Of a stretch of 64,000 bases of DNA, positions 13,537-36,973 are shown piece by piece. Under the pieces are notes generated by a model. The model was given only the letters and a program-made list of their open reading frames with translations. It made no database searches and was not told the DNA's origin. Within the stretch, counting starts at the first letter, position 1; every line of letters begins with the position of its first letter. The stretch is from Acidobacteriota bacterium (GTDB lineage Bacteria > Acidobacteriota > Aminicenantia > S016-38): contig WFSJ01000018.1 in NCBI GenBank assembly GCA_015486055.1, positions 34,179 to 98,178 on the forward strand, read 5' to 3'. Both the position numbers and the translations under genes were made by a program.

Positions 13537-13594
13537 TTATCCCTCCGTTTGTCTTTATTTTAATGCATTTTCTCTAATTATATAAGGAAATTTC

Positions 13595-15076
13595 TCATCT
13601 GACATACCCGAGAGAGCGAAGCATCTCGAGAGATTTTTTATCTATGATTCTCTTTTTAAGCCTTCTCCTTGCAAACCTTTCATATTCTAAAACATCTTTC
13701 ATCATTTCATTGGCTTGCGAATTAAACTTTATGGGCTTTAAGGAAAGCCTATCCTTTTCTATATTAAAGAAGAAGGCAAAATTATTAATAGGAGTGTAAA
13801 TGAGTTGAAAAGGCGGTTTGATAATGGAAAATCTATCGAAAAAGGCCTCAGGTCTGAAAGTTTGAAGATAAAGACTTTTATGCTTCTTCTTTCCGAGGAG
13901 GCTGAATCCTCTCATTTTATGAGAGGATTTTATGCGAGCAAGTTCTAAAACTGTCGGGAAAACATCCATAATTGAGCAGAGCCTGCTATCTATTCCCTTG
14001 ATTTTTCCATTTGGTGACAAGAACAGCATCGGAATTCTCATATATACTCCGTTAAGGAAAAGAATATGCCCTATGTGTCCTTTCCATTCACCAAGGCCTT
14101 CACCATGGTCAGCAAGAATAAAAATATAGGTATTTCTAAGCAAACCTCTCTTTTTTAGTTCTTTATAAAGTTTCCTGAATTCCCTGTCCCAGTAAACTAC
14201 TTCCTCTTTATAAAACTTCCTTGCTTTTGCAACGCTCAATTTTATTTCCGGAATAAGGGAAATCTCCTTATTTTTTTCTGCCTCTATTTCTACTTGGAAA
14301 TAATTCTTTTCTATAGGGAATTTTTTCCCGTTTATCTTTATAGAGTAAAGAGCATCCTTAATCTTATGAATTATGTTTATTCTGACCTTTATTTTACTAT
14401 GAGATTTGTTTTTTATAAGGACCTTTTCCTCCTTTAAGAAAGTTATTTCCCCTTTTTTCTTTCCCTGAACGAATATCTCACTATCCGGTCTATAATAAGG
14501 AGGAACATAGGGCTCGTGAGGATCAGAATAATGGACCCAGAGGAAGAAGGGCCTTTTTAGGTTTGAGAGCATAGGGAGAAGAGCAGAATTTATTTCTTTT
14601 GCAGTCCTGTACCATCTTGTTTTGGGAAAGGAGTTGTTGAAGTATTGAAATCCTCTTGAAATTCCCGTGGAAGCCTGAAGTGTTCCCAAGGATACGATTG
14701 CCATAGTAGTGTATCCTTTTTCCCTTAATATTTCCTGAAGGAGCTTTGTCCCCTCTTTGTATTGCATTCCGTTGTTTACCACATGAAGCTCTGGGGGAAG
14801 TTTTGATGTAAGAAGGGAAAGATGAGCAGGCAGGGTTATGGGAATTGTGGTAAAGCAATTACTGAAATATTTTCCCCGCACTTTTAGGCTTTCGAAAAAA
14901 GGGGGGTTAGCTCCTCCAAGATCCTCCCTTAATGTGTCCACAACAACAATTACGAAGTTGGGTTTTTCCCTTTTTATGAGCAAAAAATATCCTATCAGGG
15001 TAAAAAGAATAGCCGCTATAATTATCAGGGATAGATACTTCAATTTTTCATGCTTGGATTTAATTCCTTCGCTCAA
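13595..15076 (-). CDS. Membrane-anchored NPP-family phosphodiesterase. Paralog B, a tandem duplicate of A
   Basis: About 50% identical to paralog A over its full length (NFVIVVVDTLREDLGG, TTIPITLPAHLSLLTSKLPPELHV). Confidence 0.7.
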   Translation of the reverse strand: MSEGIKSKHEKLKYLSLIIIAAILFTLIGYFLLIKREKPNFVIVVVDTLREDLGGANPPFFESLKVRGKYFSNCFTTIPITLPAHLSLLTSKLPPELHVVNNGMQYKEGTKLLQEILREKGYTTMAIVSLGTLQASTGISRGFQYFNNSFPKTRWYRTAKEINSALLPMLSNLKRPFFLWVHYSDPHEPYVPPYYRPDSEIFVQGKKKGEITFLKEEKVLIKNKSHSKIKVRINIIHKIKDALYSIKINGKKFPIEKNYFQVEIEAEKNKEISLIPEIKLSVAKARKFYKEEVVYWDREFRKLYKELKKRGLLRNTYIFILADHGEGLGEWKGHIGHILFLNGVYMRIPMLFLSPNGKIKGIDSRLCSIMDVFPTVLELARIKSSHKMRGFSLLGKKKHKSLYLQTFRPEAFFDRFSIIKPPFQLIYTPINNFAFFFNIEKDRLSLKPIKFNSQANEMMKDVLEYERFARRRLKKRIIDKKSLEMLRSLGYVR

Positions 15077-15101
15077 GTTTTCTCCTTCAGTTTAGACTGT
15101 G

Positions 15102-17315
15102 TTAATTAATATATCCAAGGGACTCAAGCACCTTTCTAAATTTCTTTATCTTTTTCTTAGAGAAGGGCTTTAGATCATGAGTTTTGTTGTATTCCTTGTT
15201 CCTTTTGAGCATTCCAAAAGCTTTCTGGCGGAGGAGCCCTGTTAGAAGAGGCTTGCTTGGCGCCAGGTTATGTTTTTCCTTGTCGTCCTCCTCTAAATTA
15301 TAGATTTCATCCCTTCCTTTATAATATATGTATTTGGTTTTCCCATCGGTGAGTCCAATGTTGAAAGCGTCAGAGTTCGCCCGGGAATATAACCATCTTT
15401 TTAGAAGTTTATCTGGCTTTCCAAGAAGTAAGGGAGCAAGGCTCGTTCCCTGAGTTTTCAATTTCGGCTTTATGCCCAATAAGTCATATATCGTGGGGGC
15501 AAAATCTACATTACTATAGGCTGTTTTCTCTACAGATTTTGCCTCTTTCTGACCTGGCATCTTTAGGAAAAATGGGATGTGAATCATTTCCTGATAGTTT
15601 GTAGTGTTATGGTCAAATTTGTAATGCTCATAGAAAGCTTCGCCGTGGTCGGTGCTTACAACTATTAAGGATTTTTCGTAAAGTCCCATGCTTTTTATAG
15701 TATCCAAAACCTTTCCAACAAGATAGTCAGCGTAATAAATGTTATTGAGGTAACAGTTATAAAGCCAATCTATGAACTTAGGAGGAGGATTAAAATCCTT
15801 CTCATATCTTCTTACCAATCTTTTTATAAACATTTGGTTATATCCGAGTGTCTTTTTAATTATATAAAATTGAGGAGGAGGATTGTACGGATAATGTGGA
15901 GGAAGAATATGGATGTACACAAAGTTTGGTTTATATGGATTTATTTTCCTTAAGGTTCTCACCATTAACTTTTCTTTCATGGTAGAATCGTTCAAGAATC
16001 CTATTTTCCCAATATATACAGTTTTATCAAAACGCCCTGAAATTCCGGTTCTTATTGGAATTGCACTCCCAGTTATCAAGAGGGTTGAATATCCAATATT
16101 TCTCAGCTCCTCTGGGAGGGTTAGAAGTTTTTTGCTTGCGATGTTTTTCACATCCCTTATGCCGTGAGCTTCAGGATATAAACCAGTCATGTAGGTAGCC
16201 ACACTTGCAGCAGTATATGGAGCGGAAGTATAAAATTTCTTGAAAGAAAAAGCTTGTTTCGAAAACTTCGTTATATTTGGGACCAGCTCCTTTTTCTCTA
16301 TTATGGTATTATATCTTGCGGCATCTATGAGTATTAAGAAAATATTTGGTTTTCCTTTGATGCGGCCGTTAAACTTGGGAGAAGCTTTTTTGTTTTCCAT
16401 GCCAGTTAAAGCAAGTTTCTTCCAAAGGAGTCTGTTCATCGGGTTCTTTGCCTTATAGATCAATCTTATCCCTATGAGCTTTCCGGCAAAAGACTTGAGA
16501 GAAATATTCCCCTTTCTTTTCTCTGAGTTTTTCAGCTGCAGAATTTTATCGGATATTATTTTTCCTTCTTTGCTCAGGATTGAGATTTTAAGGGTGGCTT
16601 TTGAGGTTTCCTTTTCTCCGATTGAGAGATTCTCTACCTCGTATCTCAGAAGGATTTTTCCCAAAGGAACAAAGAAAAACTCCATTGCTGAATTCGCAGG
16701 CTGAAAAATTCTCTCTGACTTCTTACTGAAAGGTTTTGGAAAAGGGAGTAAAAACTCTACATCTTTTAGGAAAATCAACCTGTGAGGTTTCTTTGTGTGT
16801 TCTTCTTGGAAAATTCTTTTTTCCTCTTCACCGAGCTCAAATTTCAGGAAATTTTCCCCTTCCTTAAGGAATTCTTTCTTTACAGGTATCTTTATCTCTT
16901 CTTCTGAGCTCTTTGCAAATATCTCCCTGCATTTATTCTTGTTAACGAAAATCAATATGTGGACCTTTTTTTTGTCAAAAAAATTTCCTTTTCTAACCTT
17001 GAAGTATAAGTTTCTATCTCTATTTGAAAAGTTGAAGAACCTTATCTTAGCAACAGGAGATGTCATATAAATTTCCTTTCCCTCGGGGTACCAACCGGAT
17101 ATAAAGAAATAGTAAGGATTTTTATTCGGGCTTTTCATGCTTACTGTCTCAGGGAAAAAGTTCTGCCAGCTCAAATTTTTGCTCAAATCATAAGCTCGTT
17201 TATATAATCCGCAGCTGTAGAAGAGGGAAGTTACTAAAGCGAAAAGCACCATAGTAAATATAAGAATCCTTCTATTCATAATTTGAGAATTCTTGCTTAC
17301 CTCATTTTTCTCCAT
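15102..17315 (-). CDS. NPP-family phosphodiesterase with an N-terminal extension of about 330 aa and unknown function. Paralog C
   Basis: C-terminal domain has FLILIDAARYNT and ...TYMTGLYPEAHGI, which matches the NPP [10 protein letters not shown] block almost exactly. N-terminal TM plus an uncharacterised region. Confidence 0.65.
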   Translation of the reverse strand: MEKNEVSKNSQIMNRRILIFTMVLFALVTSLFYSCGLYKRAYDLSKNLSWQNFFPETVSMKSPNKNPYYFFISGWYPEGKEIYMTSPVAKIRFFNFSNRDRNLYFKVRKGNFFDKKKVHILIFVNKNKCREIFAKSSEEEIKIPVKKEFLKEGENFLKFELGEEEKRIFQEEHTKKPHRLIFLKDVEFLLPFPKPFSKKSERIFQPANSAMEFFFVPLGKILLRYEVENLSIGEKETSKATLKISILSKEGKIISDKILQLKNSEKRKGNISLKSFAGKLIGIRLIYKAKNPMNRLLWKKLALTGMENKKASPKFNGRIKGKPNIFLILIDAARYNTIIEKKELVPNITKFSKQAFSFKKFYTSAPYTAASVATYMTGLYPEAHGIRDVKNIASKKLLTLPEELRNIGYSTLLITGSAIPIRTGISGRFDKTVYIGKIGFLNDSTMKEKLMVRTLRKINPYKPNFVYIHILPPHYPYNPPPQFYIIKKTLGYNQMFIKRLVRRYEKDFNPPPKFIDWLYNCYLNNIYYADYLVGKVLDTIKSMGLYEKSLIVVSTDHGEAFYEHYKFDHNTTNYQEMIHIPFFLKMPGQKEAKSVEKTAYSNVDFAPTIYDLLGIKPKLKTQGTSLAPLLLGKPDKLLKRWLYSRANSDAFNIGLTDGKTKYIYYKGRDEIYNLEEDDKEKHNLAPSKPLLTGLLRQKAFGMLKRNKEYNKTHDLKPFSKKKIKKFRKVLESLGYIN

Positions 17316-23657: not shown

Positions 23658-24041
23658 CTATCTGTTAAACCCTAATTCTCCAGGGTTGGATTCTTCCACT
23701 CTTATTGTAAATTTTTTTGAAATGGTTTGATTTTTTAGCTTTACAATTATCAATATATTTACCTGACCAGGGTTTATAAAACCAAATTCGTGGGTTGCTA
23801 CCCTCTTCCCACAGGTTTTTTCCTTCATTTCGTTTTTGTCACTTGAGAACCCTTTATACCAGTATGACCAACTTATATCCGCGCATTTGTAATTCCTGTT
23901 GAAGAAAATATAGGCAACCACGGAAAGGGGAGCCTTTCCTGCTCTTCTTGAAACATCAATATCAATTCCAGATTTAGAGTAAGGAGAGCAAAAGCTTAAA
24001 ACAATTGCCAGTAAAGAGTAATATAAAAATTTATTGCTCAT
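23658..24041 (-). CDS. Small secreted/lipoprotein-like hypothetical protein
   Basis: 127 aa. Hydrophobic N-terminus with LSFC (possible lipobox Cys). Confidence 0.4.
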   Translation of the reverse strand: MSNKFLYYSLLAIVLSFCSPYSKSGIDIDVSRRAGKAPLSVVAYIFFNRNYKCADISWSYWYKGFSSDKNEMKEKTCGKRVATHEFGFINPGQVNILIIVKLKNQTISKKFTIRVEESNPGELGFNR

Positions 24042-26449
24042 GCCCTATTTTACACCAGGTTGACAGTTTTCTAATAAGGTGGCATACTAAAAAAGTGGAT
24101 ACGAGAATTTATTATATTGCAGCAGGGATCATAATTCTATTTTTCATTTACAAAATCGTGTCCAAAGCCAATATTGATATTGGGAAGGTAATATCCTTTC
24201 TTTTTGGGGAGAAGGAGGCCAAATCCCGCGCAGCAAAGAAAGCTGAGAAAGAAGGGAATTTTGAACTTGCAGCCAAGCTTTATGAAGAGATAGGAGATAC
24301 TGAATCAGTAGAAAAAATTTGCAATAAGGAAGGATTGTATCAAATTGCAGGAGAAATGTTCGAAAGGAAAGGAAATTACGACAAGGCAGCAAGATATTAC
24401 ATCAAGCAGGGAAATTACCAGAGGGCTTCTGACCTCTATATTACGAAACTAAATAACCTTGAGAAAGCAGCCCAAGTTCTCAAGGAATCCAGAAGATATC
24501 ATGAAGCGGCCAAGTTGTATTATGAAAACAAAAAGTATAAGGAGGCCGGGGAACTCTACGAGAAAATAGGATTCCCTCTCAAAGCAGCCTATAGCTTTGA
24601 GCAAATGGGAGATATCAAGAGGGCAGCCCAAAATTATGAAAACTGGTATACTCAGAATTCTTCCTTTGATGTAGGGGAAATAGGTGAAAATGAGGAGAAA
24701 ATACTGAGGAAAGCCATAAAGTTTTACAGAAAAATGGGAGAGAGAGAAAAGGCCCTGAATTTAGCTTTAAGTTTAAAATGGATTTCCTTGGCGGGTGAAC
24801 TTTCGGAGGAATCCGGGGATCTATCAAAGGCTGCAAAGTACTACGAGGAGGCAAGAGACCTTGTAAAGGCTTCTAATGCGTACAGAAAGTTGGGAGATGT
24901 GGAAAGGGCGGAGAGATTATTGGGAGAGCATTTCCTCTCAGAAGGCATACAGGCCGAGGCCGCAAAGCACTTTGAAAAGGGGAGAGATTTTTCAAGGGCA
25001 GCTGAGCTGTATGAATGGAATAACGAGCCTTACAAGGGCGCTGTATGCTATGAGAAAGAGGGACACTGGCTCAAAGCCGGAGAACTTTACATAAAAGCTG
25101 GAGAACTTCGGGAAGGGGCCCGTTGCTTTGAGAAAGCAGGAGAATACCCCAGAGCAGCTGAGGTCTATAAAGAAATGGCTGAAAAAGAAAAGGATACTTC
25201 CAGAAGGAAGGACCTATACAAAGACGCAGAGGAGCTTTATGTGAAAGGGAGAAAATGGTTTGAAGCTGGAAGCATAGCATATTATTCCCTTGATGATTTT
25301 GAATCAGCCGTAGAATATTTACAAAGGCTTGACACTGAAGATCCGAATTTTGAGAAGGCAAGCTTTATGCTGGGTAAACTTTTCTTTGATAGAAAAGAGT
25401 ATGACCTTGCAGAGGAGAGATTTAATGCAGCGTTAAAAGAAGCTCCCATCTCAAAATTAAACCTTGATATATATTATAAATTAGGGCTTATAGCGGAAGA
25501 GAAGGGAGATTACAAGAAGGCTTTTGAAATATTCAGAGCTGTTAGCAGCTTTGACATTCATTACCTTGATGCTAAAGAAAGGATGCAAAAACTTTCCTCT
25601 GCTGTTCAGGAACTCCAGAAGCTTGAATTTATGGCGTCAGCCCCTGGAGAAAGATATAAGATAATAGAAGAAGTAGGGAAAGGAGGCATGGGGACAGTTT
25701 ATAAAGCAGAAGATAGGCTTTTGAGCAGGATAGTTGCTCTCAAGCTTCTTAGGGAAGCTCTCACTTTGAACAAAAGAGCTCTTGAAAGATTTATAGCAGA
25801 AGCAAGAACGGCTGCAAAACTGTCGCATCCCAATATCGTTATTGTATATGATGTGGGAAGGTTCAACGAGAAGTTTTTTATTGCGATGGAATATCTTGAG
25901 GGTAAAACTTTGCTCAATTATCTCAAAGAAAAGGGCGGATTTACCATAAGACAATTATTATTTATAGCTACGAGACTTTTTTCGGCTCTTTCTTATGCTC
26001 ACAAGAATAGAGTTATCCATAGAGATATAAAACCCCAAAACATAATACTGACAAAAGATAAAAAAATCAAAGTCATGGATTTTGGCCTTGCGATTCTATC
26101 TTCTGAAATAGACAAGGAAAGGGGAAGGATAACAGGGACTCCATATTATATGTCCCCCGAACAATGTAAAGGGATAGCGGTGGATGAAAGAAGCGATATA
26201 TACTCTGCAGGAGCCACTCTGTATCATCTTCTTGTTAATCGGCCCCCCTTTCATGCAAAAAGGAGAGAAGAAATTATAAGAAAACAGGTTGAGGAATTAC
26301 CTGTGTCTCCCTCCGCCTTCAGGCGAAACATCCCTCCTGAGTTTGAGGAGCTTGTTATGAAATGTTTAGCAAAGGAGAGGGGGAAAAGGTTCCAAAGTGC
26401 AAAAGAAGCTATTGAGGTTCTTGAAATTATAAGAAAGAAATATTTTTAA
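24005..26449 (+). CDS. Membrane-anchored Ser/Thr protein kinase with N-terminal Sel1/TPR-like repeat region and C-terminal Hanks-type kinase domain. The true start may be a GTG near 24093
   Basis: TM segment YYIAAGIIILFFIYKIV. About 19-20-aa A-x-x-Y-x-x-x-G repeats. Kinase motifs GKGGMGTVYKA, VALKLL, HRDIKPQNIIL, DFGLA, SPEQ. Confidence 0.8.
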   Translation: MPVKSNIKIYCSCPILHQVDSFLIRWHTKKVDTRIYYIAAGIIILFFIYKIVSKANIDIGKVISFLFGEKEAKSRAAKKAEKEGNFELAAKLYEEIGDTESVEKICNKEGLYQIAGEMFERKGNYDKAARYYIKQGNYQRASDLYITKLNNLEKAAQVLKESRRYHEAAKLYYENKKYKEAGELYEKIGFPLKAAYSFEQMGDIKRAAQNYENWYTQNSSFDVGEIGENEEKILRKAIKFYRKMGEREKALNLALSLKWISLAGELSEESGDLSKAAKYYEEARDLVKASNAYRKLGDVERAERLLGEHFLSEGIQAEAAKHFEKGRDFSRAAELYEWNNEPYKGAVCYEKEGHWLKAGELYIKAGELREGARCFEKAGEYPRAAEVYKEMAEKEKDTSRRKDLYKDAEELYVKGRKWFEAGSIAYYSLDDFESAVEYLQRLDTEDPNFEKASFMLGKLFFDRKEYDLAEERFNAALKEAPISKLNLDIYYKLGLIAEEKGDYKKAFEIFRAVSSFDIHYLDAKERMQKLSSAVQELQKLEFMASAPGERYKIIEEVGKGGMGTVYKAEDRLLSRIVALKLLREALTLNKRALERFIAEARTAAKLSHPNIVIVYDVGRFNEKFFIAMEYLEGKTLLNYLKEKGGFTIRQLLFIATRLFSALSYAHKNRVIHRDIKPQNIILTKDKKIKVMDFGLAILSSEIDKERGRITGTPYYMSPEQCKGIAVDERSDIYSAGATLYHLLVNRPPFHAKRREEIIRKQVEELPVSPSAFRRNIPPEFEELVMKCLAKERGKRFQSAKEAIEVLEIIRKKYF

Positions 26450-26466: not shown

Positions 26467-27483
26467 ATGACTGAAGATACGGAGAGGGAAAAGAAACTAA
26501 AAGCTGCTATGGACTATATAGAGAAGGCTTTTGGAAAAGGCTCAATAATGAAGCTCGGGGAGAAGGGACCTCATGTAAGTGTGGATGTTATCCCTTCTGG
26601 GAGTATAAGATTGGATGCTGCCATGGGCATAGGGGGCTTTCCAAGGGGAAGGGTGACAGAAATATATGGTCAGGAAGCTTCTGGGAAAACTACTCTCGCC
26701 CTCCATGCAATAGCGGAAGCTCAGAGGGACGGGGGTAAAGCGGCCTTTTTAGATGTGGAACATGCTCTTGATCCAAATTATGCGCGGGCACTTGGAGTAA
26801 ATGTTGAAGAACTCCTTATTTCTCAGCCCGACTACGGGGAGCAGGCCCTTGAAATAGCTGAGATTCTTGTAAGAAGTGGAGCAGTAGAGCTTATAGTAGT
26901 AGATTCTGTAGCAGCTCTTGTTCCAAAAGCTGAACTTGAAGGAGATATGGGAGATTCACATATGGGGCTTATGGCAAGACTTATGAGTCAGGCTCTTAGA
27001 AAGCTGGCAGGAATAGTTAACAAATCAAACACAGCCCTTATGTTCATAAATCAAGTCAGGGAAAAGATCGGTGTGGTTTTTGGGAATCCTGAAACGACGA
27101 CAGGAGGAAAGGCCCTGAAGTTCTATTCTTCTCTAAGGGTGGAGGTCAAAAAACAGGCTTCCATAAAGCAGGGAGATACTGTTATTGGGAACTATGTAAG
27201 AGCGAAGATTGTAAAGAACAAGCTCGCTCCCCCCTTCAGGGAGACTACACTTGAGCTTATTTATGGGAAAGGAATAGACAGACTCGGAGATATTTTAGAT
27301 GCTGCTGTTAGTGTAGGCCTTATCGAAAAGGCTGGATCTTGGTATTCCTATAAAAATGAGAGAATCGGCCAGGGAAGGGATAACATAAAGAAACTTCTGG
27401 GTTCAAAGCCTGAGCTTTTAGAGGAAATAGAACTGGAGACGAGGAAAAGACTTGGGCTTATTTCAGAAGCTCAGAGTTCTTGA
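26467..27483 (+). CDS. recA: Recombinase RecA
   Basis: [12 protein letters not shown]-like Walker A ([12 protein letters not shown]) and the rest of the conserved RecA core. Confidence 0.95.
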
Positions 27484-28582
27484 AGCTTCTTCCTGCAGAA
27501 AATTCCCTCATGTCAAGGCCCCATGTTCCCTCTGTTATTTTGTTGGCTAATGCCCAGCCGACACCAGGGCCGAGCATAAACCCATGTCCGCTCATCCCAC
27601 TCCCAACATAAAAACCCTCAAGGTCTGTTTCGTCCACAATTGGACTTCCATCAGGGGTCATAGTATATGCGCCAGCCCACTGCCTAAGGACCTGAGCTTC
27701 TGAAAGTGCTGGAATTACCCTGGCCATTCTAAAGCTCATCTCTTTCAAGAACTGGAATGTGGAGTCAATTCTTCTCCCTGGGACCCTTGGCTCAGGAGTG
27801 TAGCACCCTATTATCTGGCCGTTTGATCTCTGCTGGAAATAGCACCCATCCTTTCTGTAGTCAACAATCATCGGGAGTGACATTCTCTTGCACCTTGTCG
27901 TTATGAAGGCTTCGTGTCTTTCAGGATAAAATGGAAGAGAAAGCCCTGCCATTTTCCCAACTTCTCCTGCCCATGGTCCGGCAGCATTTACAACGACATC
28001 GCTGTAAATTTTTTCTCCACCTTCAAGTTCCGCCCCTTTTGCCCTTCCACCTTCCTGGATTATTCCTACAACCTTTGTCCTTTTTCTTATCTCACCTCCT
28101 TTGGAAATTCCAAGGGCGAGGCCTTTTAAAACATAAAAAGGATAAGCCTGTCCGTCTTCAGGGGAATAAGCTCCACCGATTATTCCCTCATCCTCTATTT
28201 CGGGAATCAGCTTTTTAACTTCCTTTCTACCCATGAAGTTCACCTTAAGCCCAAAACTTTTCTGAAGCTTTATAGCTTTAAGGAACTTTTCCTTCTCTTC
28301 TTCTGTAAAAGCGAGGAAAAGATATCCAGACTTTTCAAACTCAACTGAGAACCCGAATTCCTCTTTCATTAAGGAAAAGAGTTCTACAGATTTTATGGCG
28401 AGCTTTATGGAGCAAGGAGTTGAGAACTGCTGCCTTATTCCACCTATACACCTTCCTGAGGATCCTGAGCCTAATCCTTCCTTTTCAAGGACAATGACCT
28501 TTTTCCCCTTCTTTGTTAGATAATAAGCGGTTGACAGACCAATCATACCGCCACCAATTATTATTGCATCCCAGTATTTCAT
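27458..28582 (-). CDS. FAD-dependent oxidoreductase of the DAO family (glycine oxidase ThiO / sarcosine oxidase beta-like)
   Basis: N-terminal dinucleotide fold [18 protein letters not shown]...VIVLEK. 374 aa. Confidence 0.7.
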
Positions 28583-28780: not shown

Positions 28781-29404
28781 TTGATTCCTGAAGCAACAAT
28801 AAGAAGGTTAAGCATTTATCTTCGCTGCTTGCGCTATTCTTTAGCACAGGGAGAGTACATTGTTCAATCTATGGACATTGCAAGAAAATGTAGAGTATCC
28901 AGCTCCTTAATGCGGAAGGACCTTTCCTATTTTGGGGGATTTGGTATAAAGGGCAGGGGTTATGATACGAAAAAGCTCATTGAGGCAATAGAAAGAATAA
29001 TAGGAATACACATTAAAATAAAGTTAATAATAGTAGGGATGGGAAATCTTGGAAGGGCCCTCATCAGGCACTTAAAAGAGATTTCGTACTTCAAGATAAT
29101 AGGTGCCTTTGACAGGGACGAAAGAAAAGTGGGAGGAAAAATAGAGGATGTAGAAGTTTTTCATGAGTCCCGATTACCATCTTTCTTGAGAGAGAGAAAG
29201 CCTGAGATAGCTCTACTTGCAATACCTCCTGAATCCCTTCAGGAAGTTGTGAATCTCCTTGGAGAAGGTGAAATAAAGGGGATTTTAAGTTTCGCCCTTT
29301 CTCCTGTAAAAATTCCAGTGGGGGTGGAGATAAGCTTTGTGGAAATTGCCTCAGAGATAGAATATCTTTCTTACAAGATAAATAAAAGGGGGAGAGAGAA
29401 ATGA
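28781..29404 (+). CDS. rex: Redox-sensing transcriptional repressor Rex
   Basis: MIPEATIRRLSIYLRCL winged-helix N-terminus plus Rossmann IIVGMGNLGRAL. TTG start. The stop overlaps the mrpE ATG (ATGA). Confidence 0.8.
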   Translation: MIPEATIRRLSIYLRCLRYSLAQGEYIVQSMDIARKCRVSSSLMRKDLSYFGGFGIKGRGYDTKKLIEAIERIIGIHIKIKLIIVGMGNLGRALIRHLKEISYFKIIGAFDRDERKVGGKIEDVEVFHESRLPSFLRERKPEIALLAIPPESLQEVVNLLGEGEIKGILSFALSPVKIPVGVEISFVEIASEIEYLSYKINKRGREK

Positions 29405-29886
29405 ATGTTGTAGTATCAACTATAGTTCTCTTTGTAATCTGGGTGATAATGACCCAGAGCTTTGATCCTCAGGAGATGTCCGTTGGCCTTGTGGTTGCTG
29501 CCATAATTAGCCTCATGGCTCCAGGGGTTGCAGGGCCAGAGCCCAGGAAATGGCTTCAGCCAAAAAGGTACATTTACGCATTCATTTACATTTTTTATTT
29601 TCTCTATGCAATGGTTAAAGCCAATATTGATGTTGCTCTTAGAGTTATAAACCCGAAACTTCCCATCAATCCAGGTATTGTGAAGGTGAAGACAAAATTG
29701 AAAACAAATGCAGGGAAACTTGCTCTTGCCAATTCTATTACTCTCACTCCAGGAACGCTTTCTGTAGATATAAAGGGAAAATACTTATACATTCACTGGA
29801 TAGATGTGAAGAAGCCTGACATAGAAGGTGCAAGTCAAGAGATAGTCAGGGGATTTGAAAGATTTTTGGAGGTGATCTTTGAATAG
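29401..29886 (+). CDS. Mrp/Mnh-type cation:proton antiporter subunit E
   Basis: 161 aa MnhE-like (VLFVIWVIMTQSF, LTPGTLSVDI). Confidence 0.75.
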   Translation: MNVVVSTIVLFVIWVIMTQSFDPQEMSVGLVVAAIISLMAPGVAGPEPRKWLQPKRYIYAFIYIFYFLYAMVKANIDVALRVINPKLPINPGIVKVKTKLKTNAGKLALANSITLTPGTLSVDIKGKYLYIHWIDVKKPDIEGASQEIVRGFERFLEVIFE

Positions 29887-30136
29887 CCTTCTAATTATAG
29901 TTTTTGCCTTGGTAAGTCTGGCAACGATTTTGTCAGTTGTGAGAATATTTGTGGGTCCTACAATCTCGGACAGAGCTGTTGGCCTTGATACAGCCACCAC
30001 CATAACTACAGCAATGATAGTTCTCTTCTCTCAGATATTTCATAGGGGAATATTCTTGGATGTTGCTCTGGTTTACGCTGTTCTCGCCTTTTTAGGAGTA
30101 ATTGCCCTTGCTCGTTATCTTGAAGGAGGTGTCTAA
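29879..30136 (+). CDS. Mrp antiporter subunit F
   Basis: 85 aa with three TM, MnhF-like (GPTISDRAVGLDTATTI). Confidence 0.7.
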   Translation: MNSLLIIVFALVSLATILSVVRIFVGPTISDRAVGLDTATTITTAMIVLFSQIFHRGIFLDVALVYAVLAFLGVIALARYLEGGV

Positions 30137-30489
30137 TGATTTACAAAATTTTAGGGGAAGTTTTAATCTTCATCGGCGCTCTCTTTCTTTTCCTTGCAGG
30201 ACTTGGAATTGTAAGAATGCCAGATGTTTACAACAGGATGCAGACAGGGACAAAGGCAACAACTCTTGGTGCCATCTCTCTTATCATGGGGGTAGGGATC
30301 TATCATCCCCAGTGGATATTTAAAACAGGGATAATATCCCTTTTCATACTTCTTACAAATCCTGTCTCTTCTCATTCTCTTGCCAGGGCTTCCCACAACT
30401 CTGGAATTCCCCTTACCAAGGGTTCTGTCCTTGATAGATATGCAGAGGATAAGAAAAAGGGATTTAAGGAGGAAGAAAATGATTCTTGA
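30136..30489 (+). CDS. Mrp antiporter subunit G
   Basis: MnhG-like (GIVRMPDVYNRMQTGTKATTLG). GGAGG SD. Confidence 0.75.
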   Translation: MIYKILGEVLIFIGALFLFLAGLGIVRMPDVYNRMQTGTKATTLGAISLIMGVGIYHPQWIFKTGIISLFILLTNPVSSHSLARASHNSGIPLTKGSVLDRYAEDKKKGFKEEENDS

Positions 30490-30724
30490 ATACTTTATGA
30501 TTCTTCTTTTGCTTTTGATGGTTGGACTGGCAATTTATGCTGTTGAAACTAAGGACCTTCTTGCCTCTGTTATTGCCGCTGGGTTTGTTTCCCTTGTGGC
30601 TTCCATTGTTTATCTTTATCTTCAAGCTCCAGATGTGGCGATGACAGAAGCAGCTATTGGAGCCGGTCTTACCACTCTTATTTTCATAATAGCCATCAGA
30701 AAAACAGAGAGGCGTGAAAGATGA
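30479..30724 (+). CDS. Small MrpB-N-terminal-like membrane subunit (DUF4040-like), 81 aa
   Basis: Internal ATG at 30479 preceded by AAGGAGG. Two TM helices. Overlaps the mrpG 3' end. Confidence 0.5.
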   Translation: MILEYFMILLLLLMVGLAIYAVETKDLLASVIAAGFVSLVASIVYLYLQAPDVAMTEAAIGAGLTTLIFIIAIRKTERRER

Positions 30725-31458
30725 GAAAATGGATAGCCATAACATTCCTTTTAATTCTGGGATTCTTTATGTTGAGGATCGCAGGGGCATTTCCCTTTGG
30801 GGAGAATACATGGAAGGTTGCAAGGCAATATGTGAAGAATGTAACAGAAGAAAAATGGTGGGTTGCTGAGCATTATGTGGATAAGGGAATAAAAGAAAAC
30901 AGAGGCTCCAATCTAGTAACATCCATAGTTGTTAATTACAGAGGATTTGACACTCTTGGAGAAGTTACAGTCCTTTTCCTTGCCGCTACTGCCCTTGCTT
31001 TTTTACTTTCCTCCTGTACTTGCTTTAGAAAATATGAAAGGATAGAGGCAAGTCTTATCCTGAAAACGGCATCAGATACCCTTTATCCCCTTTTAATTCT
31101 TTTCGGAGCCTACATATTTATTCACGGGCACCTGACCCCTGGGGGAGGATTTCAGGGAGGAACTGTCATTGCGTCAGCTGTCATGCTTATGCTTCTTGCA
31201 CATTTTTCCTTCCATCCTAACCACGAAGTCCTCTCCGTCACCGAGGGTCTCGCTGGTATCGTATTTGCCGCCATTGGCCTTGCGGGGCTTATATGGGGCA
31301 GAAGCTTCCTTGCAAACAACATACTTCCATTGGGACATTGGAACAGACTATTTTCTGCCGGAGTAATTCCTCTGATATATATAGCCATAGGCTTTAAAGT
31401 AGGTTCCGAGCTTTCTGGCCTTATAACAGATATGTTTAAGGTAACAAAGGAGGAATAA
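30721..31458 (+). CDS. Mrp antiporter subunit B (MnhB domain)
   Basis: NLVTSIVVNYRGFDTLGEVTVLF is the MnhB signature. Confidence 0.7.
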   Translation: MRKWIAITFLLILGFFMLRIAGAFPFGENTWKVARQYVKNVTEEKWWVAEHYVDKGIKENRGSNLVTSIVVNYRGFDTLGEVTVLFLAATALAFLLSSCTCFRKYERIEASLILKTASDTLYPLLILFGAYIFIHGHLTPGGGFQGGTVIASAVMLMLLAHFSFHPNHEVLSVTEGLAGIVFAAIGLAGLIWGRSFLANNILPLGHWNRLFSAGVIPLIYIAIGFKVGSELSGLITDMFKVTKEE

Positions 31459-31808
31459 TGTTTTTCTTTGCTTCTTCAATTGCCTTAATTCTGATAGGTC
31501 TTTATGCAGTTCTTGTAAAGAGGAACATAATGAAAATGGTTATAGGGCTTTCCATAATGGACACAGGAGTGAATATCTTGATCATATCCTTGGGATTCAT
31601 AAGGGGAAAGACAGCACCCATCATAAACGCAAAAGACCTTCTTGTGAGAACTTCCTCAAAGGTTGTTGACCCTGTGCCTCAGGCCCTTGTTCTTACCGCG
31701 ATAGTTATAGGGGTGGCGGTTACCGCTGCAGCCCTTTCAATAGTTATGCTCATGTATAGCAAGAAGAAGAGCCTTGAAATAGAAGAATATAAGGAGCTGA
31801 AATGGTAA
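31458..31808 (+). CDS. Mrp antiporter subunit C (NuoK-like)
   Basis: 116 aa with three TM, NuoK/MnhC-like. Confidence 0.7.
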   Translation: MFFFASSIALILIGLYAVLVKRNIMKMVIGLSIMDTGVNILIISLGFIRGKTAPIINAKDLLVRTSSKVVDPVPQALVLTAIVIGVAVTAAALSIVMLMYSKKKSLEIEEYKELKW

Positions 31809-34800
31809 ATCCAATCTTGATAATAGCAATAACCTTAGCTTCTGCCTTTTTTATAGGGATACTTCAGGTTTACAGTAAACTCTGGGCGAAAGTTTTTTTC
31901 TTTCTCGTCCTTATATTTGATTTTGTAGCTGCTGGAGCCAACTTCTACGGTTTTCTTTCAGGGAAAATAACCTCTCCGATACTGGTAAAAATTGGGGGTT
32001 TTCCTCCTCCCATTGGAATAAACCTTTTTGTAGGAAAGGCCGAAGCTGCCATGGGATTCCTGATCTTTACCATTACTCTTCTTGGAGCCTATCATTTGGC
32101 AAGAAGAGGGATTCCTGAGCCTCAGGGTAAGGCAATGGTCCTTTTTCTCCTTCTCTCCCTTGGAGCAGCAGGGATAACTTTCACAGGTGATTTCTTCAAC
32201 CTATTTGTTTTCATTGAGATAACATCCATAGCGGCATATGGGCTTGTGGCTTCAGCAAAAACAGAAAAGTCCTTGGAAGCAGCATTTAAATATATGGTTA
32301 TAGGTTCTATAAGCTCCACCTTTATTCTTCTCGGTGTGGTTTTCCTTTATAAAGCCACAGGAAGCCTTAACATGCTTGACATTGCAAAAAAAGTGAAGAC
32401 TTTTCCTCTGACCCCTGTTTTCTCTCTCATTTCCCTTGTGTTTTTTGCAGGTCTTCTCATTGAACTGGAGGTTTTCCCCATAAATGGGTGGGCCCTTGAT
32501 GTCTATCAGGGGGCAGACCCTGTGGTTGTTGCAGTCCTTACGGGTGCTGCAGTGAAAGCTTTTTATTTGATATTTATAAAAGCAGGGGGATATCTTGCCC
32601 TCCCTTCTTTTTTCCAGCTTTCCCTTATATTTGGAGGAGGCACTTATCTGGTGAGCCAATTCCTTGCTTGGAGACAGAGGGATGTCCGAAGGCTTCTTGG
32701 ATATTCCTCAGTTGCTCAATTGGGGCTTTTAATCCTTTCAGCGGGCTTTTTCCTCAATAACTCTCTTCCTTCAAGCTCAAGGCATTTCATAGCTCTTGCG
32801 ATAGTTCTTTTCGTATTCAATCATTCCTTCGCCAAATCTTCCCTTTTTCTTTTAGTAGATAATGTGGAAACCAGGGAAATGGAAGGATGGAAGGGGATAT
32901 TGAAGAGGAATCCTCTTTTCAAGTTTATATTCTCCACCTCTGTTTTTTCCATAACAGGGGTTCCACCGTTCCCAGGATTTTGGGCAAAGCTTCTTCTAAT
33001 TTTTGCGATCCCAAAAGAGTATGCTTGGGTTGTAGGCCTTATCCTTCTTGGTGCTGTGGCTGAGATCGTTTATTATTTTAGATTTTACAGAATAGCATCG
33101 GATGGGGAGGGGGAGAAAGTAAAAAAGAACTTGGCTTCACCCCTTGCAGCCTCCCTGATTTTAATTACAGGAGGCGGGGTTGCGTGGTCCATGTTTTCAG
33201 GATATATGGGGATTATGTTTAATTCTCTTATAATTGTGTTCCTTATGGTCGCTGCAGCTATTTACATTTTTGGTTTCTCAAAGCCTCTTCAGTGGACCGC
33301 TTCCCTCGTTCTTCTTGGCTATGGAATTTACAGATTTCTTCCTTCAATGAAGGCAAATCTCCACGGATTTTTCCTTGCCCTTGTGTTTTTCGGAGGAGCG
33401 ATACTTCTTTTTGCCACATATCCCACATCAAAGAGGCTTTCGTGGAGTTTTTATCCTGCATATCTTGTTGTGATTTTTTCTCTTGTTGGAATAGCCCTTT
33501 CAACCAGCTGGTTGAATCTTTTCGTTTACTGGGAACTTATGAGCTGGTCTTCCTTCCTTCTTGTTAATATGGGAAAGAAGGCAAAAAGGGCTGCATGGAT
33601 TTATGCTATCTTTAGTTCAGCAGGGGCTTATTCGATGCTAGCAGGAATATATCTCCTGCCAAAGCTTTCAATAAGCAAGATCGGGGTAACTGGAGTGCTT
33701 ATTCCCGTTCTTCTAATCACAGGCTTCCTTGTTAAAATGGCAACCTCTCCCCTTCACATTTGGGCAAGGGATGCATATGGGGAAAGCCCTGATGAATTTA
33801 CTCCTCTTCTTTCTGGAATAATGTCAAAAATTGGGGTATTCGGATCTGCTCTTGTTTTTCTCTATGTAATAGCAAATATTTCTTCCGGTCCTGCTCTCAG
33901 GTATGGTCTTGCATGGCTTGGAGTTCTTACTGCTTTCTTTATGACCCTTCTTGCAGTTTTTCAGGAAGATCTAAAGAAACTCCTTGCTTATTCCTCTGTA
34001 GGCCAGGTAGGCTACATTCTTCTCGGCCTTGCCATTGCTACACCCCTTGGATGGAATGCTGCCCTTTACCACACTGTAGATCACTTCATTTTTAAGGGGC
34101 TTCTTTTTGTGGCTGCTGCAGGGATAATTTATCGTGTAGGAACTTCCTATCTTCCCCATATGGGAGGGCTTATAAGAAGGATGCCGCTTACTTTCCTTGC
34201 AGTGCTTATTGCGATAATTTCTCTTGCAGGGATTCCACCAATGGCTGGTTTTGCAGGGAAATGGCTTCTCTATTCTGCGCTTATTGAGAAACAATGGGTA
34301 TTTATTACGGTGGTTGCATTTTTAGCTTCCACGCTTGCCTTCCTTTATTGTTTCAAGATTCTCCATACTGTATTTCTCGGTCAGCTTCAGGACGAGAACA
34401 AAAATGCAAGAGAGGTCCCTTTTCCCATTGCTGCTGCCGAAACAATCCTTCTTGTTGCCACCGTAGCAATTGGAGCTTTTCCAAGGCTTCTTCTCGATCC
34501 CATAAACAAAGTGTTAAACAAGATTCCAGGGATGAAAAATTCCGGCTTGTTCTACGAAAAGACGCTTGGGGCAGTTTCGAAGCTCGGCCACTGGAATGCC
34601 CTTTTCCTTATGGTATTTACAGTGGGTTCTTTCATCTTTGCCCTTATATTCTTTGCCCTAACGTCAGCGAGGGTGAGGGAGGTTAAACAACTTGATGTGG
34701 GCTATGCGGGGGAAGTTCCCCGTCAAGTAGAGGATCTTCACTTTGGCTATGACCTTTATGCCCATTTCAGAAGAACGGTTAAATGGCTGATTTATCCTCT

Positions 34801-34951
34801 GGTTTCTAAAATATGGAAGGGAATTTATGAATGGACAGGGACCTTTGCCGAGGTTCTCAGGAGATTTTATACAGGAAATATAAATACATACGCAGCATAT
34901 GTGATTCTCATTTCAATATTAATTCTTCACTTCTTTGCTGGGGGGAAATGA
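31802..34951 (+). CDS. Fused double MrpD/NuoN/NuoM-like antiporter subunit (two proton-pumping modules, 1049 aa)
   Basis: First module has NuoN-like FNLFVFIEITSIAAYGL. Second module (from about residue 500) has WELMSWSSFLLV, as in the NuoL/M/N WExxG/SxxSYxLI block. At least 28 TM. Confidence 0.75.
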   Translation: MVNPILIIAITLASAFFIGILQVYSKLWAKVFFFLVLIFDFVAAGANFYGFLSGKITSPILVKIGGFPPPIGINLFVGKAEAAMGFLIFTITLLGAYHLARRGIPEPQGKAMVLFLLLSLGAAGITFTGDFFNLFVFIEITSIAAYGLVASAKTEKSLEAAFKYMVIGSISSTFILLGVVFLYKATGSLNMLDIAKKVKTFPLTPVFSLISLVFFAGLLIELEVFPINGWALDVYQGADPVVVAVLTGAAVKAFYLIFIKAGGYLALPSFFQLSLIFGGGTYLVSQFLAWRQRDVRRLLGYSSVAQLGLLILSAGFFLNNSLPSSSRHFIALAIVLFVFNHSFAKSSLFLLVDNVETREMEGWKGILKRNPLFKFIFSTSVFSITGVPPFPGFWAKLLLIFAIPKEYAWVVGLILLGAVAEIVYYFRFYRIASDGEGEKVKKNLASPLAASLILITGGGVAWSMFSGYMGIMFNSLIIVFLMVAAAIYIFGFSKPLQWTASLVLLGYGIYRFLPSMKANLHGFFLALVFFGGAILLFATYPTSKRLSWSFYPAYLVVIFSLVGIALSTSWLNLFVYWELMSWSSFLLVNMGKKAKRAAWIYAIFSSAGAYSMLAGIYLLPKLSISKIGVTGVLIPVLLITGFLVKMATSPLHIWARDAYGESPDEFTPLLSGIMSKIGVFGSALVFLYVIANISSGPALRYGLAWLGVLTAFFMTLLAVFQEDLKKLLAYSSVGQVGYILLGLAIATPLGWNAALYHTVDHFIFKGLLFVAAAGIIYRVGTSYLPHMGGLIRRMPLTFLAVLIAIISLAGIPPMAGFAGKWLLYSALIEKQWVFITVVAFLASTLAFLYCFKILHTVFLGQLQDENKNAREVPFPIAAAETILLVATVAIGAFPRLLLDPINKVLNKIPGMKNSGLFYEKTLGAVSKLGHWNALFLMVFTVGSFIFALIFFALTSARVREVKQLDVGYAGEVPRQVEDLHFGYDLYAHFRRTVKWLIYPLVSKIWKGIYEWTGTFAEVLRRFYTGNINTYAAYVILISILILHFFAGGK

Positions 34952-35859
34952 TGGGTGTCAAGATATTCTATGCTTTTATAGCTTTGATAGGGGGCATTGC
35001 TTATGGTCTCTTGCTCGGGGGGATTTCAAGGAAAATAACAGCAAGAATGCAAAACAGGAGAGGGCCGACCGTATTCCAGAACTTCATAGATGTGTGGAAA
35101 TTATTCAGAAAGAAGACAGCCATTTCACATGGGGTGATGTTCTACCTTGCTCCCATATTCAGGTTGCTTGGCGGAGCAGGGACTTTCCTTCTTGTCCCCA
35201 TCGTTGTAGGGAACTTTTATCTGAGCAATTTTTCCTTCGGTGGAGATCTTATAGTGATAATGTATTTCATGGTGATGGGATGCCTCGGAATGGCACTTGG
35301 AGCAGCGGAGAGCGGCCATCCTCATGCTCCTATCGGTGTTACAAGGGGGCTTGCACAAATGGCGGGTCAAGAGCTTCCCTTTATAATTTCAGTGGTTGTT
35401 CTAATGATTGTTGATAAAACCACCTCTGTAGAAGGAATAGTAATGGCGCAGCAGGGCGGGATACTTCACTGGCACATATTCACCTATCCTTTTGCAGCGA
35501 TTGCTGCTTTCATAAGCCTTTTAGGAATGATGACTTCCTATCCGTTCGAAATTGTGATGGCACCCCAAGAAATCGCCATTGGTCCTCCCACAGAGTTTAG
35601 CTCAACTTTCCTATCCTACATGTTTTCAGGGAGAAGTGTATTTGCTGTGGCAAAATATGTTCTCTTCATGGACCTTTTTCTTGGTGGTGCAACGAACCTC
35701 CTCTGGGCCTTTTTAAAAACCTTTCTGATTTTCCTGTGGCCATTGTTCATTACGGATGTTTTTCCTCGTTTCAAACTTGAGCAGTCAGTTTCCTTCTTCT
35801 GGACATGGCCAACACTTATAGGGCTGATAGATTTACTAAGAATATACATAGTGAGGTAA
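34948..35859 (+). CDS. NuoH/HycD/MbhM-like membrane subunit
   Basis: RKITARMQNRRGPTVFQNFIDVWKLFRK matches the NuoH R-x-x-x-x-QxRxGP motif. 4-nt overlap with the upstream gene. Confidence 0.8.
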   Translation: MMGVKIFYAFIALIGGIAYGLLLGGISRKITARMQNRRGPTVFQNFIDVWKLFRKKTAISHGVMFYLAPIFRLLGGAGTFLLVPIVVGNFYLSNFSFGGDLIVIMYFMVMGCLGMALGAAESGHPHAPIGVTRGLAQMAGQELPFIISVVVLMIVDKTTSVEGIVMAQQGGILHWHIFTYPFAAIAAFISLLGMMTSYPFEIVMAPQEIAIGPPTEFSSTFLSYMFSGRSVFAVAKYVLFMDLFLGGATNLLWAFLKTFLIFLWPLFITDVFPRFKLEQSVSFFWTWPTLIGLIDLLRIYIVR

Positions 35860-35861
35860 CT

Positions 35862-36434
35862 ATGGGAAAAGATAAATTTCTAAATGAAAAGCCTGAAAAA
35901 TTGACATATTCAGGTGTTTTTAAGAAGATTGACAACTGGGCAAGGGCAAGGTCCCTGTGGGTTGTCGCTTATGGAACAGGGTGCGGTGCCATTGAGCTTC
36001 GCCCTACCTTTACCTCAAGATTTGATGCGGAAAGGTTTGGGATGCGTATGGTTGGCACCCCCCGTCAGGCAGATGTCATCGTTGTAAGCGGTTATCTTAC
36101 TGTGAAAACCTTAAAGAGGGTAATAAGGGTTTACGAACAAATGCAGTCCCCGAAATATGTTGTTGCCCTTGGAGCCTGTCCTATAAACGGAGGTATGTAT
36201 TACGACTCCTACAATGCTATCAACCGCCTTGACCTTTATCTTCCAGTGGATATATGGGTAACAGGTTGCATGCCAAGACCGGAAGCCATTCTCGCAGGTT
36301 TCAAGAGGCTTCAGGAACTCATAGATGACGGAAAAGCAGACGGATGGAAGAAGTACATAGAGGCCCTTGATTGGTATAGAGGAAATCAGAGAAAAATCAT
36401 AAAGAACTGGCGAATGCCTAATTATAACTGGTGA
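35862..36434 (+). CDS. NuoB/hydrogenase small-subunit-like protein
   Basis: VAYGTGCGAIE, GACPINGG and TGCMPRPE N2-cluster-type motifs. The first motif carries a single Cys rather than CC. Confidence 0.8.
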   Translation: MGKDKFLNEKPEKLTYSGVFKKIDNWARARSLWVVAYGTGCGAIELRPTFTSRFDAERFGMRMVGTPRQADVIVVSGYLTVKTLKRVIRVYEQMQSPKYVVALGACPINGGMYYDSYNAINRLDLYLPVDIWVTGCMPRPEAILAGFKRLQELIDDGKADGWKKYIEALDWYRGNQRKIIKNWRMPNYNW

Positions 36435-36442
36435 GGTTGATA

Positions 36443-36973
36443 ATGAATATTATTGAGAGATTAAAGGAAAGATTTGAAGTTCTCATCGCAGAGAAAAAAA
36501 GAAAGGACCTCTTGATAATAGAGACAACAAAGAAGGGACTTATACCCATGCTTTTTTACCTTAAGGAATACGAAGGATACAGAACCCTCACCTTGATATC
36601 CTGTGTGGATTGGATAGAGGATAAAAAATTTCAGATGAGCTATATCCTATGGAACTTTAGAATGAAAGCGAATATCATCGTGAAGTTCATGCTTGATAGG
36701 GAAAACCCCGATTTTGAAACCGTATATAAATTGTGGCCCCAAGCAGAAGCCTACGAAAGAGAAATTCACGAAATGTTCGGGGTGAATTTTGAGGGCAATC
36801 CAACACAGAACGAGGAGCTCATCCTTGAGGATTGGGATAATATTCCTCCAATGAGGAGAGATTTTGATACTCTGAAATATTCAATGGAGAAGTTCGGGGA
36901 GAGGGAACCCAAGAGCCGAATAAATATAAGGAAGGAAATCTCTGAACAATATGACGAATGGAGAAGAAAATGA
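36443..36973 (+). CDS. NuoC (30-kDa)-like subunit
   Basis: TLTLISCVDW...ILWNF... and ...EREIHEMFGVNFEGNP are typical of NuoC/MbhK. Confidence 0.75.
   Translation: MNIIERLKERFEVLIAEKKRKDLLIIETTKKGLIPMLFYLKEYEGYRTLTLISCVDWIEDKKFQMSYILWNFRMKANIIVKFMLDRENPDFETVYKLWPQAEAYEREIHEMFGVNFEGNPTQNEELILEDWDNIPPMRRDFDTLKYSMEKFGEREPKSRINIRKEISEQYDEWRRK

Follow-up and report, generated by a model that had tools for sequence, protein, structure and literature searches.

Bacterial Hanks-type Ser/Thr kinases show hundreds of architectures and are usually pictured as receptors, with the kinase inside the cell and a sensor outside. Here we describe a kinase gene from a 64,000-nucleotide (nt) stretch of an Acidobacteriota bacterium (contig WFSJ01000018.1, positions 34,179 to 98,178; the window), in which an N-terminal transmembrane anchor is followed by about 430 amino acids (aa) of helical repeats and then by a C-terminal Hanks kinase domain, an order that had been proposed in an earlier note made from the DNA alone and that is borne out by our analysis. 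The gene is real and belongs to a conserved, uncharacterised family of bacterial signalling enzymes, whose members are probably membrane-tethered scaffold kinases that have no sensor and would be activated by dimerisation and autophosphorylation. Both parts of the protein are of kinds already known, a Hanks kinase and a TPR-like alpha-solenoid, and it is their arrangement which is unusual, though not revolutionary.

The closest catalytic domains are those of PknB, Stk1, PrkC and StkP, and the window protein resembles these in being a bitopic RD (Arg-Asp) kinase with a single transmembrane helix and all catalytic residues. It differs in that the transmembrane helix comes first and the kinase last, and it has neither an extracytoplasmic domain nor a PASTA match; the NCBIfam equivalog PknB_PASTA_kin (NF033483) gives 322 bits against a cut-off of 450, through the kinase part only (profile positions 6-266 of 563). 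PknG of Mycobacterium and Corynebacterium likewise joins a Hanks kinase to a cytoplasmic TPR scaffold, which couples partner binding to substrate phosphorylation (PMC8546545). PknG is, however, a soluble protein with an N-terminal rubredoxin-like domain and a short canonical TPR after the kinase, whereas here the repeats precede the kinase, consist mostly of 13-aa short-helix units and belong to a membrane-anchored protein, and Pfam finds no rubredoxin match. A third comparable kinase is YabT of Bacillus subtilis, a transmembrane-anchored Hanks kinase without an extracellular sensor, which has a basic juxtamembrane segment and for which RecA is a substrate (PMC3708118, PMC6333020); at our locus recA is the downstream gene. 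In YabT the kinase is N-terminal and the transmembrane helix C-terminal, there is no repeat array, and activation occurs by DNA binding.

Among eukaryotic kinases, Mps1 combines an N-terminal TPR docking domain with a C-terminal kinase. Bub1 and BubR1 also have N-terminal docking TPRs and a C-terminal kinase (PMC10996584 for Bub1), an analogy of layout only, as all three are soluble kinetochore proteins with short canonical TPRs and kinases of an unrelated subfamily. By analogy with PknG and with the eukaryotic Bub1/Mps1 type, the window protein probably works as a scaffold kinase and not as a PknB-type receptor. In a survey of Planctomycetota and Myxobacteria, TPR and WD40 arrays were found at the C-terminal ends of Ser/Thr kinases (PMC11032199), so that the order seen here is the reverse of the usual bacterial layout, as the earlier note had supposed. 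Literature searches for bacterial kinases that place TPRs at the N-terminus and the catalytic domain at the C-terminus yielded descriptions of the eukaryotic Bub1 type only, none was found of a bacterial kinase in which an N-terminal anchor is followed by a cytoplasmic repeat array and then by the kinase, and a search combining Aminicenantes, protein kinase and TPR gave nothing relevant among its top 10 matches.

The open reading frame (ORF) extends from 24005 to 26449 on the forward strand and comprises 814 aa when counted from its TTG codon. From that codon it shares exactly 37 nt with a divergent 127-aa gene (23658..24041, reverse strand), an overlap of the length given in the earlier note, which had preferred a GTG near 24093. 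The choice of a GTG is correct and its position is 24095, 2 nt away: AAGGTGG, a putative Shine-Dalgarno (SD) sequence, lies 12 nt 5' of this in-frame codon, homologues of 770-812 aa align from it, and an identical 784-aa protein (P0001) has been deposited in NCBI and ENA, where the metagenome-assembled genome (MAG) scaffold records of the window contig, which is of Candidatus Aminicenantes type, are GCA_027006605.1 and ERZ23495180, respectively. TTG 24005 was rejected as a start on the grounds of the 37-nt overlap, of the deposited protein and homologues, which begin at the GTG, and of its first 30 codons, which are without counterpart in relatives. All residue numbers refer to the 784-aa form, and the coordinates of its features are collected in Table 1.

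Table 1. Coordinates of the kinase gene, its domains and motifs, and adjacent features, in window positions.
Feature	Coordinates	Strand	Basis or remark
Best sigma-70-like promoter match	24060..24088	+	TTGACA, 17-nt spacer, CATACT with upstream TG; 10/12 matches
Whole kinase gene	24095..26449	+	GTG start; 784 aa plus stop; ORF list, SD, deposited protein, homologue alignment
Single N-terminal transmembrane anchor, aa 5-22 (IYYIAAGIIILFFIYKIV), after 4-residue stub	24107..24160	+	Hydropathy, AlphaFold2 (AF2)
Juxtamembrane helices, aa 29-52, basic stretch KEAKSRAAKKAEK	24179..24250	+	AF2 helices 29-37 and 39-52
Short-helix alpha-solenoid, aa 56-364	24260..25186	+	Autocorrelation, AF2, Pfam, PDB, Foldseek
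Transition helix, aa 368-384	25196-25246	+	Precedes TPRs
Three canonical 34-aa TPR motifs, aa 386-486	25250..25552	+	
Long linker helix, aa 493-515, TPR module to kinase	25571..25639	+	AF2 helix 493-515
Hanks-type Ser/Thr kinase domain, aa 519-781	25649..26437	+	Pfam Pkinase E = 6e-56
Gly loop (GKGGMG)	25676-25693	+	Checked by translation
K550	25742-25744	+	Checked by translation
E569	25799-25801	+	Checked by translation
HRDIKPQN	26018-26041	+	Checked by translation
DFG	26078-26086	+	Checked by translation
Activation segment	26078-26161	+	Checked by translation
recA	26467..27483	+	17 nt downstream of kinase; own GGAGG

By its sequence, the C-terminal domain is a complete, catalytically competent RD kinase of the PknB/Stk1 type. 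Pfam PF00069 matches at 190 bits against a cut-off of 31.7, and all motif residues of a Hanks-type kinase are in place, among them the Asp of subdomain IX and the Arg of subdomain XI. The earlier note had reported a complete Hanks kinase at this end of the protein and had named the lysine of VALK, the aspartate of HRD and the DFG as the residues to check; all are present. In 88 homologues, G528, G530, K550, E569, H642-R643-D644, K646, N649, D662-F663-G664, T682, P688-E689, D701 and R765 are invariant, as are the GKGGMG and SPE motifs. The closest solved kinases are Staphylococcus aureus Stk1 (4eqm, E = 3e-55) and Mycobacterium tuberculosis PknB (E = 8e-51). An alignment with PknB, which is ungapped, places R10, L33 and D76 of that protein opposite R520, L543 and D586; L543 never varies among the homologues, and R520 and D586 are conserved to at least 90%. 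The substitutions L33D and D76A break the back-to-back N-lobe interface and kinase function in both PknB and StkP (PMC13434768). Within the activation loop the window protein has S669, S670 and T680, and a Ser or Thr is found at position 680 in 69 of the 88 homologues and at position 676, which aligns with PknB T173, in 56.

The anchor segment IYYIAAGIIILFFIYKIV is the top hydropathy window of the protein and the only one above threshold, and AF2 models a transmembrane helix at aa 3-21. An equivalent N-terminal helix is present in 79 of the 88 homologues, preceded by a stub with a median length of 15 aa (range 0-59), and the juxtamembrane region that follows has the family consensus RxAKKAxKxG. 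With 4 residues ahead of the helix, the window protein has no folded domain on the non-cytoplasmic side, as a receptor-type Ser/Thr kinase would. When Lys and Arg were counted in the 15 residues on either side of the helix, they were more numerous after it in 67 of the 79 transmembrane-bearing homologues, equal in 12 and fewer in none. The topology prediction suggested in the earlier note, which had left the side of the repeats to be decided, was run on these flanks, and the positive-inside rule gives a clear answer: the repeats and the kinase are both predicted to be cytoplasmic, with no extracytoplasmic sensor, because the C-terminal flank is rich in Lys and Arg and the ATP-dependent kinase lies on the same side.

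The main part of the scaffold, aa 56-364, is modelled by AF2 as 24 helices, of which 20 are 10-11 residues long and four are longer, at 14-16 residues; the unit is a 10-residue helix and a 3-residue turn, or 13 aa. The model of aa 1-525, built on an alignment of 88 sequences, has a mean predicted local distance difference test (pLDDT) score of 92.8. Autocorrelation of the repeat region with the BLOSUM62 matrix gives its strongest signal at a lag of 13 (z = 9.3), followed by 26 (z = 6.5) and further peaks at 39 and 52, while lags of 19 and 20 stay close to background (z about 1.9 and 1.8) and a lag of 34 gives z = -0.8. The top three lags are 13, 26 and 39 in 86 of the 88 homologues, and the remaining two are still led by 13 and 26. 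Spacing of exactly 13 aa is kept in 17 units with the consensus [YLF]-x-K-A-A-x-L-Y-E-K-x-G-D, and this regular register is interrupted twice, around a loop at aa 189-197 and at aa 269-285.

These results alter the earlier description of the repeats in several respects. The motif A-x-x-(Y/F)-x-x-x-G-(D/N)-x-x-x-A, on which that description was founded, is real and statistically supported, but it spans exactly 13 residues, and the unit length of 19-20 aa must be given up; autocorrelation rules out a period of either 19-20 or 34 aa for the main array. The Sel1-like label also falls, as Sel1 repeats are 36-44 aa long and the family is absent among the best 25 of 31 Pfam matches. Neither is this region a canonical TPR array, with a 34-aa period and distinct A and B helices, since one motif is common to successive helices. 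In our own reading of the sequence, each 13-aa unit resembles the second half of a TPR (positions 15-27, GDYxxAIxxYxKA), apparently iterated without the A-helix type. What had been taken for a single array of repeats has two parts, roughly 24 short-helix units at aa 56-364 and three canonical TPRs at aa 386-486. A recent expansion at the DNA level was also considered and rejected, as no tandem repeat of 39 or 78 nt was found; with no nucleotide-level tandem repeat left, the array is old.

The three TPRs have the 34-residue helix-turn-helix form and follow the W4-L7-G8-Y11-A20-F24-A27-P32 pattern. The two-carboxylate clamp of the Hop/Sti1 type (K and N in helix A of TPR1, N in that of TPR2, K and R in that of TPR3) is absent, its equivalents being F389, S393, M425, D458 and K462 when positions are mapped by motif position on a consensus-TPR alignment and not by structure superposition, and a chaperone-clamp TPR was rejected on these residues. 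Beyond the module, a fall in pLDDT at aa 510-520, at the end of the linker helix, indicates a hinge that is probably flexible.

The arrangement had been called unusual, and so it is in reversing the usual order, but it is no one-off, as it defines a sizeable conserved family. A protein search returned 441 proteins at E <= 1e-5. Among the best 120 of these, most cover >88% of the query, at 28-68% identity and with lengths of 750-1150 aa; they are named merely 'protein kinase' or 'TPR repeat protein' and come from Aminicenantes, Acidobacteriota, Omnitrophota and Deltaproteobacteria MAGs. At least 88 full-length homologues share the architecture. A genome scan, which was built on a 6-sequence alignment and recovers only the subfamily with an AAE[LF][YF]EW[NE] signature, found one locus per genome in 45 species-representative genomes, most of them labelled Candidatus Aminicenantes or Acidobacteriota; the twelve labelled uncultured Clostridia are taken to carry generic MAG labels.

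Searched by itself, the short-helix region retrieves 1,217 clusters (50% identity), of which 391 reach E <= 1e-10. Of 265 solenoid proteins retrieved, 167 have a kinase motif at the C-terminus and 6 in the centre, none has one at the N-terminus, and 57 have an N-terminal transmembrane helix and no kinase motif. The module also occurs in solenoid-only proteins, in fusions to UvrD-like helicases and with an inserted PQQ-type beta-propeller. The propeller is seen in P0143 (1100 aa) and about 9 similar clusters (1088-1116 aa), where a PQQ/BamB-type domain (aa 289-511) lies between two solenoid stretches ahead of a C-terminal kinase; there is no transmembrane helix, and the combination of beta-propeller and alpha-solenoid is reminiscent of coat and intraflagellar transport (IFT) proteins. 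P0138, P0150 and P0163 (1215-1860 aa) join UvrD/Rep-type helicase domains to an array of the 13-aa solenoid at the C-terminus, which indicates that the solenoid module serves effectors besides kinases.

How such a protein might work can be proposed from these parts. The N-terminal signal-anchor helix would insert N-out/C-in at the inner membrane, leaving about 4 residues outside. The ~430 cytoplasmic residues, comprising the 24 helices on a 13-residue unit and the three TPRs, would form an elongated alpha-solenoid with a protein-protein docking surface, which most likely recruits substrates or partners, or mediates self-association. Output would pass through the linker helix to the PknB/Stk1-like RD kinase. 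Local concentration on the membrane or on the scaffold would most likely switch the kinase on, by back-to-back dimerisation of the N-lobes and trans-autophosphorylation in the activation loop.

Several points weigh against this proposal. The whole family is known from sequences and models, and how PknB-type kinases are activated in vivo is itself a matter of continuing debate (PMC13434768). The window protein has an Arg, in place of a Thr or Ser, at position 676, which corresponds to T173 of PknB. The full-length AF2 model (pLDDT 90.5) has a predicted template modelling score (pTM) of 0.48, which leaves the orientation of the kinase relative to the solenoid undefined. Membrane tethering is not obligatory, as a subclade (P0005-P0009, 770 aa) is without the transmembrane helix, with a stop codon directly upstream in L003. 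No partner gene, whether FHA, PP2C or substrate, is conserved beside the kinase family-wide, so that the docking role is drawn from the fold class alone.

Of the other explanations considered, the one that survives best would make the kinase a dedicated regulator of the adjoining stress machinery, phosphorylating RecA and/or DnaK and ClpB, with the solenoid-TPR part docking these clients. We regard this as possible but unlikely. The gene order in the window is ispH, rpsA, HIT, dnaK, a small gene (reverse strand), the kinase, recA, a flavin adenine dinucleotide (FAD) oxidoreductase (reverse strand), Rex and a Mrp/Mbh-type antiporter. The 17-nt gap between the kinase and recA holds no terminator-like site, which makes co-transcription of the two genes likely in the window clade; recA is treated here as a neighbour and not as a proven functional part. 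A comparison of 53 loci shows two main arrangements. In the window clade, with 47-69% identity to the window protein, the kinase is followed by recA and a reverse-strand FAD oxidoreductase, an order seen in the window's own contigs and in 8 loci of related species. In a larger clade of about 29 loci, at about 38% identity, the kinase is followed by an acyl-CoA dehydrogenase and a forward-strand FAD oxidoreductase, and may be preceded on the reverse strand by a response-regulator-LpxC fusion and ClpB, clpB being divergently adjacent to the kinase in 18 loci.

The adjacency to recA, the dnaK gene upstream and the clpB of the other clade all speak for a link with stress proteins, as does YabT, a transmembrane-anchored, sensor-less Hanks kinase that phosphorylates RecA (PMC3708118). 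The placement between dnaK and recA, to which the earlier note drew attention, is true of the window but is no feature of the family, as recA is confined to the window clade and dnaK lies upstream only in the window and its closest relative, L009. The neighbours vary by clade, recA in one and acyl-CoA dehydrogenase in the other, and the distant members P0113 and P0068 have none of the neighbours of either; because they change in this way, the neighbourhood names no substrate. In addition, recA, dnaK and clpB are housekeeping genes, and synteny at the level of a clade can be inherited by chance. The TPRs lack the Hop-type carboxylate clamp described above, and chaperone cofactors are the default matches of three-TPR modules, since they are dominant in the PDB. 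No second kinase or paralogue was found by blastp against all window ORFs, and no FHA or PP2C gene was found by Pfam among the 20 larger window ORFs scanned or among neighbours in 6 related contigs.

A second explanation, which we consider quite unlikely, is that the array mainly self-assembles into a membrane-associated lattice or filament in the style of coats, IFT or clathrin legs, the kinase being a passenger which reports or regulates the state of assembly. It arises from what the short repeats resemble. Scored over the whole protein, three Pfam families of such solenoids exceed their gathering cut-offs, namely TPR_IF140-IFT172 (PF24762; 28.3 against 26.8 bits), Clathrin (PF00637; 35.6 against 29.6) and SNAP (PF14938; 40.4 against 25), with small margins in two of the three and matches at the level of the repeat. 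Among solved structures, IFT-A subunits come nearest to the 13-aa repeats in both the sequence and the Foldseek comparison: aa 55-364 searched against PDB sequences gives IFT144 as the best match (E = 1.2e-8), a Tetrahymena IFT-A WD40 protein (1.7e-5) and also WDR19, IFT140 and IFT122. These alignments preserve the 13-residue register, so that AAEMYERAGQFERAASIYIQTKNF of IFT144 pairs with AGEMFERKGNYDKAARYYIKQGNY. The best Foldseek matches are likewise IFT-A chains (8bbg_A, E = 4e-9), although the TM-scores are 0.2-0.3 and global superposition is poor.

The likeness to the C-terminal solenoids of IFT144/WDR19, IFT140, IFT122 and IFT172, to the clathrin heavy-chain repeat and to SNAP is one of short helices in a roughly 13-residue register, whereas the eukaryotic proteins carry beta-propellers at the N-terminus and lack both a kinase and a transmembrane helix. 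These comparisons place the array in one repeat type with the IFT and coat solenoids of eukaryotes, which does not imply orthology or common descent; similarity at the level of the repeat could be convergent. The 57 anchored solenoid proteins without a kinase motif and the relatives of the P0143 type fit self-assembly, but some kinase-less proteins may be contig-end fragments, and oligomerisation is proposed by analogy with coat solenoids. It is very unlikely that the array is a true bacterial homologue of the eukaryotic coat/IFT-type alpha-solenoid (IFT-A, IFT172, clathrin leg), self-assembling on the cytoplasmic membrane with the kinase as its signalling output; if it were, bacteria such as Aminicenantes would carry a membrane-bound, coat-like scaffold module, combinable with kinases, beta-propellers or helicases.

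There is hardly any chance that the protein is an anti-phage defence kinase, related for example to PD-T4-6, MADS Mad6 or BREX PglW, with an array that senses a phage protein: defence proteins commonly sense through repeat arrays, the solenoid occurs in UvrD-like helicase fusions as well, and PADLOC models (PD-T4-6 up to E = 7e-93, mad6 7e-78) and NCBIfam MADS6 (6e-50) do match, but all within the generic kinase domain (aa 482-782) and, for NCBIfam, far under curated cut-offs (170 against 460 bits; 88 against 990 bits), while the synteny with core genes (rpsA, dnaK, recA, clpB, acyl-CoA dehydrogenase) is stable and clade-wide, with one locus per genome in the 45 species, GC content stays at 0.37-0.45 along the window with no break to be seen, and there is no integrase or transposase among the roughly 30 named window proteins. 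The defence-kinase class was rejected, as it would call for a full-length match together with system genes or a defence island.

Read as a membrane-tethered scaffold kinase, the family represents a different conserved logic in a poorly known phylum, in which a kinase held at the membrane faces inward through a scaffold of ~430 residues. This does not overturn current understanding, but it offers a defined target for studies of signalling in Aminicenantes and related uncultured lineages. The array is also a clean natural case of a 13-residue 'half-TPR' helical repeat, of use to repeat-protein design and to the tuning of domain databases, and the family forms a reservoir, in bacteria, of the type of repeat from which the IFT and coat solenoids of eukaryotes are made.

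Some further observations concern the surroundings of the kinase gene. The best promoter-like site, with its TTGACA, 17-nt spacer and TG-CATACT, ends 7 nt before the GTG, and a transcript made from this site would be leaderless or nearly so; this conflicts with use of the AAGGTGG sequence (24076-24082), which sits within the promoter spacer. Such sites are as numerous in the region as in shuffled sequence, and this one is a lead at most. The divergent 127-aa gene encodes an N-terminal hydrophobic segment ending in LSFC, and although the earlier note had labelled its product a lipoprotein, the Phe at -1 is not a canonical lipobox residue. The gene has no match in Pfam, NCBIfam or PADLOC, and beyond the window's own contigs its conservation extends only to L009 (60% identity).

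In the larger clade, a gene that precedes the kinase in the reverse orientation, in most cases with clpB in between, fuses a response-regulator receiver to LpxC (UDP-3-O-acyl-GlcNAc deacetylase), as in L004 (1512-2828, reverse strand), L008 (4460-5782, reverse strand) and 16 further loci, which suggests phosphorylation-controlled lipid A synthesis. The FAD oxidoreductase, a DAO-family protein (27458-28582 in the window, reverse strand), lies within two genes of the kinase in both clades, while the intervening gene changes between recA and acyl-CoA dehydrogenase and the oxidoreductase switches strand. Detected in 20 of the 53 loci, it is spread more widely across clades than recA or clpB; acyl-CoA dehydrogenase is found in 29 loci, all of one clade.

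Elsewhere in the window, a 756-aa protein (1668-3938, reverse strand) has two LptF/LptG permease matches and resembles a fusion of LptF with LptG. At 12037-17315 (reverse strand) there are three sulfatase-family genes in a row, of 499, 493 and 737 aa, and a sulfatase is also found just upstream of the kinase in L003. Directly downstream of the Rex-like redox repressor is the Mrp/Mbh-type antiporter cluster (29401-38073, forward strand), which comprises MnhE, MrpF, MnhG, MbhD, MbhE/MnhB and a 1049-aa proton-antiporter subunit and is followed by a gene for an NADH dehydrogenase 49-kDa-type subunit.

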